A stretch of 64,000 nucleotides of DNA from assembly GCA_038331135.1 (NCBI GenBank), contig JBBQOS010000001.1, positions 9,140-73,139 of the forward strand, in the 5' to 3' direction. The position numbers were made by a program, and so were the translations under genes. This stretch comes from Candidatus Moraniibacteriota bacterium. Its GTDB lineage: Bacteria; Patescibacteriota; Minisyncoccia; Moranbacterales; UBA9337. A model generated the notes under the pieces. The model saw only the letters and a list, made by a program, of their open reading frames with translations, was not told the origin of the DNA and made no database searches. This document shows positions 23,598-29,194 of this stretch, one piece after another (position 1 is the stretch's first letter; each line of letters begins with the position of its first letter).

Positions 23598-23852
23598 TCT
23601 GCCCGTAAAGATATTCGGGCAGTGTGGCAGGGCGAAATGCGGACTCGGTTTTGCGAAGCTATTTTCTGGGGAAAGGATTTGGCAAAACCTCGGCTGATTT
23701 TTGGTGGTGGTTTCCCGCCCGCAGAAAAGGGTCTGGGGAATGAATGCGGGCGGGGCTTGTGTTAACTACAAAATCATGGTAGGGTAGCTTCAGAAGAAAT
23801 CCTTTGGATTTCTCGAAAATTGTACATTCACAAACTAAACAAGGAGACGACA
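23598..23852 (+). promoter_or_regulatory. structured 5' leader of trpS (copy A of inverted-repeat leader)
   Basis: Hairpins are CTGCCCG/CGGGCAG (23599-23622), GTTTTGC/GCAAAAC (23648-23688), CCCGCCCGCA/TGCGGGCGGG (23714-23754) and AGAAATCC/GGATTTCT (23793-23813). An AAGGAG SD lies 7 nt before the ATG. Confidence 0.6.
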
Positions 23853-24845
23853 ATGGAAACAGTTCTATCAGGAATCCGCGCCACGGGGCGCCTACATTTT
23901 GGCAACTTTCTTGGAGCCGTGCAAAACTTCGTGAAGTTCCAACAACCCGGCAATACCTGCCTCTACTTCATCGCCGATTGGCACACACTGACAACACTCG
24001 AAAATCCAGAAGATCTTCGAGGTAATCTGGTTGAGATTGTGAAAGATTACATTGCCGCTGGTCTCGATCCAGAGCAATCAATCATTTACGCTCAGTCAAG
24101 TGTGCCGGAAATCTCCGAACTGTGTCTGTATCTTTCCATGATTCAGCCAATTGGTGAGCTTGAACGCGTTCCGACATTCAAAGATTTGATTCGTAAGAAT
24201 CCAGACAACGTGAATCTTGGGCTCGTGACCTATCCCGTTCTTATGGCGGCAGATATTCTCGGTCCTAAAGCGACACTCGTGCCGGTTGGCGAGGATCAGA
24301 TTCCAAATGTTGAAATGGCGCGCAATCTCGCGAACAGATTCAACAAACGTTTTGGAAACACCTTCGTCATCCCCGAGATGATGGCGCAAATGATAAAAGT
24401 GCCAGGGCTTGACGGCGCAAAGATGGGAAAATCGGAAGCGGACAACGCTATCGACATCAATGTCTCTATTGAAGCAATCCGCGACCAGTATCTGAAGAAG
24501 GGAATTACGGATCCACAACGTCTCCGAGTTACTGATCCCGGCGATCCATACAATCGTTGCCAGTCTGTGTACCCTGTGCACGAACTGGTGACGAATGGCG
24601 AGACAACAACTCGAGAGATTGCCAATCTCTGCATCTCGGCTCAAATCGGCTGTGTTGCCTGTAAGCATCGTTTGGTTGATGGCATCGCAAAGATTCTGGA
24701 ACCCTTTCAGGAAAAACGTGCCGGTCTCGTCAACCAAAATGATTACGTCAAAGATGTACTTCATGAGGGTGGCAAGAAAGCTCGCGTCAGAATCAAGGCA
24801 ACCACCGAGCTTGTTCGAGAGAGAATGGGCATTGTTCTCTATTAA
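23853..24845 (+). CDS. trpS: tryptophanyl-tRNA synthetase (C-x23-C-x6-C-x2-C type)
   Basis: It has a HIGH-like HFGN, YFIADWHTLT, YPVLMAADIL, VPVGEDQ and a KMSKS-like KMGKS, and is 330 aa. I place the start at ATG 23853 (SD AAGGAG), not the track's 23820. Confidence 0.85.
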   Translation: METVLSGIRATGRLHFGNFLGAVQNFVKFQQPGNTCLYFIADWHTLTTLENPEDLRGNLVEIVKDYIAAGLDPEQSIIYAQSSVPEISELCLYLSMIQPIGELERVPTFKDLIRKNPDNVNLGLVTYPVLMAADILGPKATLVPVGEDQIPNVEMARNLANRFNKRFGNTFVIPEMMAQMIKVPGLDGAKMGKSEADNAIDINVSIEAIRDQYLKKGITDPQRLRVTDPGDPYNRCQSVYPVHELVTNGETTTREIANLCISAQIGCVACKHRLVDGIAKILEPFQEKRAGLVNQNDYVKDVLHEGGKKARVRIKATTELVRERMGIVLY

Positions 24846-24860
24846 GATCGAGTATACTTA

Positions 24861-24902
24861 ATGGGCACCTAAAACCGCAAGATTTTAGGTGCCCATTTTT
24901 TA
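24861..24902 (+). terminator. rho-independent terminator after trpS
   Basis: ATGGGCACCTAAAA-CCGCAAGA-TTTTAGGTGCCCAT is followed by TTTTTT. Confidence 0.8.
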
Positions 24903-24904
24903 AT

Positions 24905-24948
24905 TTGACAACGATAGCCTAACCATGATAAGCTTACTCATGGTTAGG
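24905..24948 (+). promoter_or_regulatory. candidate promoter (TTGACA) overlapped by 11-bp perfect palindrome
   Basis: TTGACA is at 24905-24910, with TGATAAGCT as a possible extended -10. The palindrome is CCTAACCATGA-N9-TCATGGTTAGG at 24918-24948. Confidence 0.4.
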
Positions 24949-27425: not shown

Positions 27426-27459
27426 CGCCATACTCGAAAGTACAGCGTCATTAAGTTTT
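27422..27459. terminator. bidirectional terminator between convergent operons
   Basis: ATGACGCCATACT-CGAA-AGTACAGCGTCAT has T-runs on both strands. Confidence 0.55.
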
Positions 27460-27472
27460 ACTAGTAGTGCGT

Positions 27473-28435
27473 TCAAGAGATGATTCCCTTGATTGCATGG
27501 AGCGTATCATGTTGGCTCTGTGGAAGCACATTGCCAATCACGTTGTTGAGAACAGTCACGACACCTTGCAGTTTGACACCGATTGGCTCCACGATGAGCG
27601 CCATACCCTTGGCAAAATACTTGGTGCTGATCAAAAATTTCTCAGGACCAAAAACATTTTGAACAAGTTTATGAATTCCGTTCGGCGTATACCAATGAGA
27701 CAGGAAGAATCCATCTCTACCTTGTGTCTGCCCAACAATCTGAAGGGCCGAGATAGATGGAATTGAGCCACTGGAAACCTGCCTTTGTATTGCCGAAAGA
27801 GAATCCCTCACAGCATTCTTCGTGGTTTCCTCGTCGAAAGTCGAGACCTTGGCTCGAACACCTATCGATAGGAGCTCTCTCTTTACCGAGAATCCTATCC
27901 AATCGAACAAGAATTCTTCGCCGAGAATCCGACCGTTCCGAAGATACTCGTCGTATCCACAGAACGGATATCCGGATTCCGGTTCAGCTTTGAAGAAGCT
28001 CTGACAGTTGTAGACCCCTATAATGAGGCGCCGGGGCTTACTCGCGATCTGCTGGCAAATGACGGAAATCTCACCCGGCAAGAATGTCATCTCCACACCA
28101 TGGTCGATGAACGGCTTGAGGATGGAAGACCTTGCCCGTTCGACTTGTTTAGGTGCAAGGTCGTTGAATACAACCTTGGAAACATACACCCCTATTCGGG
28201 AGAACATGTCCTCAAGAATCACCTTTGGATCACGACAACCGACGGCTCCGCCGAGTGTGATGATATCTTCGCAATCGATTTCTCGATACGCCGCAAGAGT
28301 AGCATCCAATTCCCCTTGGTTATCCGTCGTCATCTCTTCCGTTTCGTACGTACTGGACTGAGCGTCCCAGAAAGCCTTTTGGCCTTCGACTGTGAGGTTT
28401 GGCTTTTGCCAACCATCTTCTCTTGACTTACTCAT
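27473..28435 (-). CDS. hypothetical protein, weak class I SAM-methyltransferase-like N-terminal half plus unknown C-terminal domain
   Basis: It has FWDAQSSTYE, a motif I-like ITLGGAVGCRDP and a motif II-like VVFNDLAPKQVERA. An AAGGAG SD is present. Its ATG overlaps the upstream stop (ATGAGTAA). Confidence 0.35.
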   Translation of the reverse strand: MSKSREDGWQKPNLTVEGQKAFWDAQSSTYETEEMTTDNQGELDATLAAYREIDCEDIITLGGAVGCRDPKVILEDMFSRIGVYVSKVVFNDLAPKQVERARSSILKPFIDHGVEMTFLPGEISVICQQIASKPRRLIIGVYNCQSFFKAEPESGYPFCGYDEYLRNGRILGEEFLFDWIGFSVKRELLSIGVRAKVSTFDEETTKNAVRDSLSAIQRQVSSGSIPSISALQIVGQTQGRDGFFLSHWYTPNGIHKLVQNVFGPEKFLISTKYFAKGMALIVEPIGVKLQGVVTVLNNVIGNVLPQSQHDTLHAIKGIIS

Positions 28436-28934
28436 TTGAATCTCCTTTGGTTTGAGTGTTTGATGTGGTTTGAGAGATATCTGCGATTATTGCCCCAATG
28501 GCTTTCACCATTTCCTCGGGATCAATCACAATTGTTTTCCGCGGATCACTAGATCCGCAGTAAACCGTTCGTTGTCTGAGTAGCACCGCGTCCACAATGA
28601 TATTCTGAAAGAACTCATGAAAGGGACACATATCCCCCGAGTTCAATCCAAGTTTTTTGGTGATTTCTGGTCCAGCGAACTTCACTGTTTTTTCCGATAC
28701 GCCGAGAATAGCAGCGACCTTTGAGAAGTCGACTCTATTCATGCCGGGCAGGATAGTGGCAATCAAACCTATATCCTTTTGAGATAAGAGCAAGGTCTTT
28801 GCCATCAAGTCAGTGGATATATCCAAAGTGCGAACAACATCACCAATCGTAATGACAGGATCATGCTCAATCACTCTCGGCGAATACCCAGAACTCTTAA
28901 GCTTCTGTATGATTTTTTCTGTCTGTGTTTCCAT
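28428..28934 (-). CDS. YbaK/ProX-family aminoacyl-tRNA deacylase (trans-editing domain)
   Basis: 168 aa. It has the conserved Lys context MAKTLLL and GDMCPFHEF in place of the family's GxxxPFG-type motif. I place the start at ATG 28934 (SD AAGGAG), not the track's 28967. Confidence 0.7.
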   Translation of the reverse strand: METQTEKIIQKLKSSGYSPRVIEHDPVITIGDVVRTLDISTDLMAKTLLLSQKDIGLIATILPGMNRVDFSKVAAILGVSEKTVKFAGPEITKKLGLNSGDMCPFHEFFQNIIVDAVLLRQRTVYCGSSDPRKTIVIDPEEMVKAIGAIIADISQTTSNTQTKGDSNE

Positions 28935-29194
28935 TATCGTCTCCTTGTTTAGTTTGTGAATGTACAATTTTCGAGAAATCCAAAGGATTTCTTCTGAATC
29001 TACCCTACCATGATTTTGTAGTTAACACAAGCCCCGCCCGCATCCATCCCCCAGACCCCTTTCTGCGGGCGGACAAAATGCAAAAAACAAAAGTCAGTCG
29101 AGGTTTTGCGAATCCTTCCCCCAGAAAATAGTTTCGCAAAACTGAGTCCGAATTGCATTTGCACTCCGCCTGTCCGAATATTTTTTCGGGCAGA
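28935..29194 (-). promoter_or_regulatory. structured 5' leader of ybaK-like operon (copy B of inverted-repeat leader)
   Basis: Its reverse complement aligns with 23598-23852. There are only two substitutions over the gene-proximal ~107 nt. The distal part is more diverged, with indels. Confidence 0.6.

Follow-up and report, generated by a model that had tools for sequence, protein, structure and literature searches.

An island of tryptophan-linked genes in a Candidatus Moraniibacteriota bacterium is bracketed by two inverted copies of one repeat, and our results suggest that these copies are probably paralogues of a short promoter and 5′ untranslated region (5′UTR) module that gene conversion keeps alike, with inversion of the island between them being nearly silent. 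The island lies in a 64,000-nt stretch of assembly GCA_038331135.1 (contig JBBQOS010000001.1, positions 9,140 to 73,139 of the forward strand; hereafter, the window, numbered from its first letter). Copy A of the repeat precedes trpS, which encodes tryptophan--tRNA ligase (TrpRS), and copy B precedes a ybaK-like gene. An earlier reading of the letters alone (hereafter, the sequence-only reading) had taken the copies for leaders that could form a leader-swapping switch. What appeared to be a one-off switch now looks like a recurrent feature of candidate phyla radiation (CPR) bacteria, that is, one short module that heads several tryptophan-linked genes, evolves in concert within genomes, and often occurs as inverted pairs around the trpS island. 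This connects trpS to a YbaK-like editing protein and its 320-aa partner, and offers a testable handle on gene regulation in CPR organisms, whose characterised regulators and regulatory RNAs are, to our knowledge, few.

An inverted repeat of uneven divergence

A repeat search of the window found inverted arms at 23715-23861 and 28926-29072 (147 nt, 97% complementary, spaced 5064 nt) as well as weaker outer arms at 23636-23686/29104-29154 (86%) and 23679-23703/29088-29112 (88%), and by pairwise alignment copy A (23598-23861, + strand) is homologous over its full length to copy B (29194-28926, - strand). BLASTN of copy A against the window recovered copy B at E = 6e-85; neither this search nor an nhmmer profile of the module described below found a third copy in the window. 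The alignment confirms what the sequence-only reading had reported about divergence, namely that the gene-proximal 107 nt differ at two positions only and that the distal parts are much more diverged. Specifically, 23755-23861 is gapless and identical to its partner at 105 of 107 positions (the differences being C/A at 23788 and C/T at 23851), with the longest perfect stretch spanning 62 nt (23789-23850), and identity steps down near 23714 from 97% (142 matches and 5 mismatches over 23715-23861) to about 75% (90 matches, 26 mismatches and 7 gap columns over 23598-23714; Fisher exact p = 2.5e-8). Both the repeat and the unevenness of its divergence are real and far beyond chance. In both genes, the ribosome-binding site and the opening codons ATG GAA ACA fall inside the repeat, the inner limit of which on the trpS side, 23861, comes right after codon 3.

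The conserved part is a predicted promoter and 5′UTR

We gathered related loci via the 320-aa protein, TrpRS and a DNA pattern, and aligned 18 distinct copies (alignment A8). Comparison with these fetched loci showed that the widely conserved part of the repeat is the final ~105 nt only, before the ATG; similarity ceases just upstream of the TTG of the -35 element in L008, L012, L015, L016, L017 and L033, and the whole upstream intergenic region of L015 is 105 nt. The parts of the two copies are as follows.

23598..23713, + strand: distal upstream element of copy A, about 75% identical to that of copy B; holds TGGTGGTGG at 23702-23710
23714..23755, + strand: GC-rich hairpin of copy A, CCCGCCCGCA(21 nt)UGCGGGCGGG, predicted by folding; abuts the -35 element directly
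23757..23785, + strand: predicted sigma-70-type promoter of copy A, with -35 TTGTGT (23757-23762), a 17-nt spacer, and an extended -10 made up of TGg (23777-23779) and TAGGGT (23780-23785)
23793..23814, + strand: 5′UTR hairpin of copy A, GA.GAAAUCC UUU GGAUUUC.UC, at or near the predicted transcript start
23825-23835, + strand: box CATTCACAAAC of copy A, in invariant or nearly invariant A8 columns
23841-23846, + strand: Shine-Dalgarno sequence AAGGAG of copy A, in invariant or nearly invariant A8 columns
28926..29030, - strand: predicted promoter, 5′UTR and three codons of copy B, a gapless mirror of copy A (-35 at 29030-29025; -10 at 29007-29002; hairpin at 28994-28973; box at 28962-28952; Shine-Dalgarno at 28946-28941; ATG at 28934-28932)
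29073-29032, with the distal element running to 29194, - strand: GC hairpin and distal element of copy B, from the alignments

The near-identical proximal segment carries the signature of a promoter, a ~60-nt 5′UTR and three codons, the promoter being predicted from a TTG, a spacing of 17±1 nt, the extended -10 form TGnTAnnnT, and a fixed distance to the gene, all of which point to the sigma-70 type. Across A8, T31 and T32 (of the TTG) and T51 (the T of TG, 23777) are invariant, G33 (TTG) and A55 (of the -10, 23781) are conserved in at least 90% of copies, and the ATG is likewise invariant or nearly so. The 5′UTR hairpin is found at its position in the minimum-energy fold of 17 of the 18 copies, and its arms vary in a compensatory fashion (GAGAAAUCC/GGAUUUCUC in the window, GAAAAACUCA/UGAGUUUUUC in L017, GAAGCCCA/UGGGUUUC in L033). 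Another match of the promoter scan, TTCACA-16-GAYAAT, was rejected because it overlaps the start codon, from which transcription would begin inside the gene.

The module is not restricted to these two genes. The pattern CATTCACAAAC..AAGGAG..ATGGARAC retrieves the starts of trpS, ybaK and a chorismate-mutase/methyltransferase fusion gene (CM-MT) in GTDB and JGI contigs, and nhmmer searches of the fetched contigs placed module copies at the head of trpS, ybaK, CM-MT and an AstE/AspA-like gene; the exact pattern GCGGGCGGGGCTTGTGTTAAC gave 0 matches in metagenome contigs and 0 in genome contigs. We propose that the module would comprise an extended -10 promoter of the sigma-70 type, a hairpin with which the transcript would begin, the CATTCACAAAC box, a ribosome-binding site and the codons for M-E-T, and that copies A and B would be paralogues of this conserved cis-regulatory module, which in Paceibacteria-type candidate-phyla bacteria may head several tryptophan or aromatic-amino-acid units. 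In the window the two copies would drive two convergent units, and an inverted repeat would surround the island because the two module copies head convergent units. The conservation of the CATTCACAAAC box suggests a regulatory role, exerted via some factor. The module is, as far as we can judge, previously undescribed, and a tryptophan-linked regulon in these bacteria is plausible. A bolder version, which is speculative and, in our view, on the unlikely side, holds that the ~105-nt module together with an optional ~300-nt GC-rich extension is an undescribed cis-regulator that defines a tryptophan/aromatic regulon in Paceibacteria-type CPR bacteria (trpS, the YbaK-like trans-editing factor and its partner, CM-MT, and the AstE-like enzyme), that its copies are recombination hot spots, and that the CATTCACAAAC box and the 5′ hairpin serve as sensor or operator for some factor. 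If this were true, module copies would keep one another alike, shuffle or flip the cassettes downstream of them, and thereby render the trpS island modular.

Module copies evolve in concert within genomes

Module copies of the same genome resemble each other more than copies that head the same gene in different genomes. In an identity matrix over the -35 to ATG stretch, same-genome partners share 98% identity in the window, 100% in the JGI contig Ga0209541_10000177 (hereafter, Ga0209541), 92% in Taylorbacteria RIFCSPLOWO2_12_FULL_43_20 and 89% in L016, with lower values in Zambryskiibacteria (76%) and L015 (73%), vs. a mean of 59% for same-gene copies in different genomes. The nearest relative is the same-genome copy in six lineages; in L015 this holds for the trpS copy only, its CM-MT copy being marginally nearer to winA (74%). 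Ga0209541 carries a 426-nt inverted pair with one mismatch (99.8% identity), 4.26 kb apart, around trpS...CM-MT, and its CM-MT begins with MET, like trpS, as opposed to the MEK of its orthologues, which indicates that the homogenised tract reaches the coding sequence as far as codon 3. In the strain of L003, the 320-aa protein of which is 80% identical to that of the window, the two contig ends are the same 30-mer and carry derived states that are absent from the window; TrpRS of this strain is absent from the listed matches, and the trpS-side copy is visible for these 30 nt only. For this same strain, to which L002-L007 belong, contigs of 5.15-5.2 kb from several samples terminate precisely where the repeats begin on the island side. 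In L020 the five genes are arranged in the same convergent order, with unrelated upstream regions and no inverted repeat, which suggests that the gene order is older and the repeat secondary.

The sequence-only reading had offered recent duplication or ongoing gene conversion as the source of the pattern, and conversion is the part that finds support, in the same-genome likeness of six lineages and in the Ga0209541 pair. Paralogues exceed orthologues in likeness in those six lineages, and the tracts are discrete, with boundaries into neighbouring sequence (the step near 23714; the 426-nt tract of Ga0209541), as would be expected of concerted evolution. From these comparisons of sequence, we infer gene conversion as the homogenising process. 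That is, the near-identity of the two copies would come from homologous recombination between them; the most recent conversion tract would cover ~23715-23861, and an older tract, or the duplication itself, would extend out to 23598. Given repeated homogenisation, the step near 23714 would mark the edge of the most recent tract.

Concerted evolution of repeats is a known kind of process; here it is seen in a promoter/5′UTR module. The inverted tufA and tufB copies of Salmonella enterica co-evolve by gene conversion, with up to half of the recombination events being inversions (PMC6735719; PMC5485169); the conversion is RecA-dependent and associated with chromosomal inversion (PMC6735719, PMC5485169; Hughes 2000 cited therein). 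Like tufA/tufB, the module copies form two inverted homologous copies per genome, show higher likeness within than between genomes and have bounded tracts, and a crossover between them would invert the interval and leave both units intact. Unlike the tuf genes, which are 1.2-kb coding genes hundreds of kb apart, they are regulatory modules of 0.15-0.43 kb with three codons attached, lie 4-5 kb apart and head different genes, and conversion or inversion between them would be a prediction from sequence. Plastid large inverted repeats (10-25 kb) provide another point of reference, as their copies are kept identical by recombination and both isomers have been demonstrated and are functionally equivalent. 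The likeness to our case lies in inverted, homogenised copies with equivalent isomers, and the difference in scale, in the organelle setting, and in isomers that have been demonstrated.

The distal element and the GC hairpin

The distal parts of both copies are truncated copies of a ~300-nt GC-rich, hairpin-rich element (window 23598-23755 and 29032-29290), which is present in full length in L002 (7097-7415) and L032 (841-1150), and also in L001 (352-790). In L002 and L001 the full-length element precedes ybaK, whereas in Ga0209541 it flanks the island on either side; it occupies the interval from a divergent promoter to that of the module. The distal element of copy B has ~113 nt deleted relative to L001. 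A comparison of L001 with L002 shows covariation in a long arm pair of this element (CCCCGAAAGAAAAACAC/GUGUUUUUCUUUCGGGG), two of its hairpin loops carry the motif CUGGGGA, and RNAalifold found some compensatory pairs in the distal element among three sequences only. The GC hairpin is kept in copy B, L001, L002 and Ga0209541; its U-tract is poor, and the terminator scan made no call there. It may be an upstream terminator or insulator, or a protein-binding site. The possibility that L001 is a chimera, its A-like and B-like mosaic being a sign of A/B exchange, was rejected, as ancestral states are retained in L001 and its upstream part is shared with the outgroup L002; the mosaic pattern fits ordinary descent.

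The sequence-only reading had assigned to copy A a UGG-UGG-UGG segment as part of a leader. Both this segment (UGGUGGUGG) and the GC hairpin are located upstream of the -35 element, and the corresponding position reads UGGUGACGG in L001 and UUGUUUUUUGCAUU in copy B, with the stretch missing in L002 and Ga0209541. A gathering-threshold Rfam scan of the whole window and permissive scans (E up to 10) of copies A and B, L001 and L032 listed tRNAs and chance matches only, with no family placed on either copy. T-box, Trp_leader and other known RNA families were rejected for the repeats based on these Rfam scans and on the lack of conservation of the GGUGGUGG run, and a leader-peptide reading was rejected based on all-frame translation and on the loss of the UGG run in the comparison.

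Alternative explanations

It is possible to account for the uneven divergence without any exchange between the copies, by a single recent duplication after which purifying selection kept the proximal part alike while the distal part drifted. The proximal part is indeed the functional, conserved part, and divergence is much lower there. However, only 36 columns, a minority of the proximal part, are conserved at 90% or above across lineages, whereas A and B differ at 2 of 107 positions and agree even in those parts of the loop and spacer where genomes differ freely from one another. Such likeness within a genome, moreover, arises independently in five other lineages, and the identity in Ga0209541 spans 426 nt, the distal part and codon 3 included. 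Hence, we consider a single duplication unlikely. That the inverted repeat, or the orientation of its interior, results from mis-assembly is very improbable, and the least likely of the explanations considered here. Short-read assemblers cannot orient a segment between long perfect inverted repeats, and contigs L003-L005 do break at the repeats; nonetheless, the longest perfect stretch in the window (62 nt) is below typical read length, and independent contigs have the same junctions (L001, from JGI, and L002, from ENA, on the ybaK side) or the same gene order (L020). A practical caution still follows for these islands: where the inverted repeats are perfect and 0.15-0.43 kb long, short-read assemblies are broken or wrongly oriented.

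Two further readings give the distal halves a function. Under the first, the whole ~260-nt repeat is a transcribed, tryptophan-sensing leader (T-box-like, or a Trp-Trp-Trp attenuator) with the GC hairpin as its regulated terminator. The position of UGGUGGUGG, 3 nt 5′ of a strong GC hairpin arm and upstream of trpS, fits this idea, as does a WWW-containing frame that is open from a GTG start, and the upstream tRNA genes could supply read-through transcription. Yet that frame is 39 codons long, has no ATG, has a GTG or TTG start without a ribosome-binding site and stops in the hairpin loop; the UGG run is missing or altered in copy B, L001, L002 and Ga0209541; the hairpin lacks a good U-tract; most module copies are without any distal part; and the matches listed by four targeted scans (E up to 10) include neither T-box nor Trp_leader. 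The set of features that would mark a T-box riboswitch (covariance match, T-box sequence, specifier, terminator/antiterminator) was not found in the repeats, nor was that of a leader-peptide attenuator (a short open reading frame with start and ribosome-binding site, conserved tandem codons, alternative hairpins). T-box leaders (RF00230) resemble copy A, which likewise is an element upstream of a trpS gene and contains both a GC-rich hairpin and a GGUGG-like run, and a weak T-box-like element does occur elsewhere in the same island (25027-25188), but the repeats are without the conserved T-box sequence or specifier, and the element in question is upstream of the conserved promoter. We therefore regard a leader as very unlikely; the claim that the repeats act as leaders fails on the position of UGGUGGUGG upstream of the promoter and on its lack of conservation. 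The second reading, the leader-swapping switch, posits a reversible flip of the island that exchanges functional distal halves and so alters the regulation of trpS and of the ybaK unit. The copies are inverted, with perfect stretches of up to 62 nt, enough for homologous recombination, their distal halves differ, inverted module pairs recur around trpS islands (Ga0209541, L016, L015, the L003 strain), and assemblies break at the repeats. These breaks, however, are expected with or without inversion, the distal halves are upstream of a conserved promoter and UGGUGGUGG is not conserved, a crossover would leave each gene its promoter and 5′UTR, the open reading frames (ORFs) scanned in 12990-42563 include no invertase, and the window and L002 share orientation relative to their common flank. 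Invertons of the fimS or hin type have repeats of tens of bp, a dedicated recombinase, and a promoter or coding piece between the repeats. The island matches invertons and invertible promoters (fimS, hin, Bacteroides-type; PMC11602134, PMC10028968) in having inverted repeats that flank a segment whose inversion was proposed to change expression, with a repeat length (~264 nt) that is atypical for them; it differs in that the promoters are inside the repeats instead of between them, so that every promoter-gene pairing is preserved, and in that the scanned ORFs nearby include no dedicated recombinase of the tyrosine or serine type. Taken together, we find a switch quite improbable, as the data support gene conversion and give little support to a regulatory switch.

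What stands of the earlier proposal is that a crossover would invert the 5-kb cassette, which is correct in principle; what does not stand is the regulatory consequence, since promoter and 5′UTR are inside the repeat, and the proposed exchange of distal halves would concern sequence upstream of the promoter. Inversion between the copies is mechanistically possible, and rare inversion events would be in keeping with our preferred reading, that of paralogous modules homogenised by conversion. A crossover would then be a by-product that leaves each unit behind a promoter, hairpin, box and ribosome-binding site equivalent to those it had before, and the inversion would be nearly silent because promoter and 5′UTR lie inside the repeat. 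Judged by the alignments, it would swap two single-nucleotide differences at non-conserved positions of the module, together with the sequence beyond the promoters, which is not conserved either. No recombinase was found by Pfam scans of the five ORFs of the island and of 20 ORFs in its flanks, a result that covers the larger ORFs of 12990-42563. In the sole informative contig comparison, window vs. L002, orientation is the same, with the outer flank of copy B being shared and adjoining ybaK in both; the same outer flank adjoins CM-MT in Ga0209541. A flank found at ybaK in one case and at CM-MT in another would fit module recombination that reshuffles cassettes over evolutionary time, and is not in itself evidence of a reversible switch. 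A tblastx search of the flanks of Ga0209541, L015 and L016 for inversions found no shared flanking genes. The same-strain contigs of Logan SRR19962012 (99.96-99.98% identical to the window) showed no alternative junction; they end at window positions 29303 and ~23111, that is, not at the repeat but on either side of the tRNA-His/Arg cluster and the island, which suggests that the 6.2-kb stretch between these ends is variable in the population or differently covered.

Several points count against our preferred reading and should be weighed with it. The consensus promoter scan did not return TTGTGT-17-TAGGGT, the -10 of which fits the consensus at 3 of 6 positions, and the transcription start, at ~23792, is a predicted position. 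Within-genome likeness could also stem from repeated fresh duplication or replacement. Finally, the distal element and GC hairpin are 99.8% identical between the two copies of Ga0209541, which our model leaves unexplained; if they are transcribed and functional, a swap might matter.

Island setting and neighbouring genes

The two copies flank a stretch of 40-51% GC within flanks of 25-35% GC, and the island is directly 3′ of tRNA-His and tRNA-Arg genes. Its two units are complete, with their own terminators, and converge onto a bidirectional terminator (27421-27452). The features between the copies are the following.

23853..24845, + strand: trpS, tryptophan--tRNA ligase, 330 aa (PF00579; TIGR00233 at 254 bits, cutoff 176.75)
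24860..24897, + strand: predicted intrinsic terminator 3′ of trpS, a 15-bp stem followed by TTTTTT
25027..25225, + strand: putative divergent T-box-like leader and terminator, 5′ of the dehydrogenase gene; contains GGUGGCACCGCG
25256-26320, + strand: homologue of ScyB-like Trp dehydrogenase (NF035922 at 301 bits, cutoff of 600 not reached; PF02812, PF00208)
26292-27425, + strand: class I/II aminotransferase (PF00155)
28435-27473, - strand: 320-aa gene, overlapping the ybaK-like gene; no Pfam or NCBIfam match
28934-28428, - strand: YbaK-like tRNA-editing-domain gene (PF04073)

TrpRS homologues at 90% identity are present in other CPR contigs; an exact look-up of the TrpRS of the window returned no record. 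The 320-aa family comprises ~90 clusters (P0001-P0089 and the window), the named ones all being CPR (Paceibacterota, Kaiserbacteria), and its gene is immediately 3′ of the YbaK-like gene in every fetched locus; one JGI homologue bears the label SAM-dependent methyltransferase. The T-box-like leader matches RF00230 over 25027-25188 at 27.7 bits (E 2e-4), short of the gathering score of 93 and with Stem I unaligned, and none of its relatives' versions attains that score either. It carries AAGGUGGCACCGCGG, with the same GGTGGCACCGCGG in the corresponding region of L006, and a terminator-like site with a hairpin and U-run follows at 25209-25222. This weak match suggests a regulatory element inside the island that would be separate from the repeats.

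A tRNA-Trp(CCA) gene is immediately 3′ of trpS in L002 (11575-11650) and L021 (12746-12821), and L003 has a tRNA at the same post-trpS position (4088-4160); none was found at the corresponding window position (24898-25026). The island contig L020 has tRNA genes at both ends. Right after the tRNA-Arg gene of the window, at 23503-23555 (+ strand), there is a tRNA 3′-half-like fragment (T-arm CAGGTTCGATTCCTG, acceptor strand and CCA); it lies where the higher-GC island begins on the left and may be left over from an integration site. A large serine recombinase is encoded divergently beside the trpS-ybaK-320-aa gene cluster of a Zambryskiibacteria metagenome-assembled genome (L008 3909-5126, L009 2426-3754), T4SS/TraG-like genes are near the pair of ybaK and 320-aa genes in L012 (14417-16969), and TrpRS proteins with 90% identity occur in unrelated genomic contexts; these may be read as signs of mobility.

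Finally, two features were noted just outside the island. A promoter-like site with an extended -10 (TTGAAA-16-TGgTACAAT; 29295-29380, + strand) is directed outward from the island, is also present in L002 and Ga0209541, and is followed after ~35 nt by a hairpin with a T-run that could terminate transcription on both strands (29357-29372); the site could give a very short transcript or be the start of the neighbouring gene. On the other side, the AT-rich spacer left of the tRNA-Lys gene holds a short tandem array at 22621-22703, with 4-5 copies of a CTTTCTATATTT-like unit at a 12-nt period.

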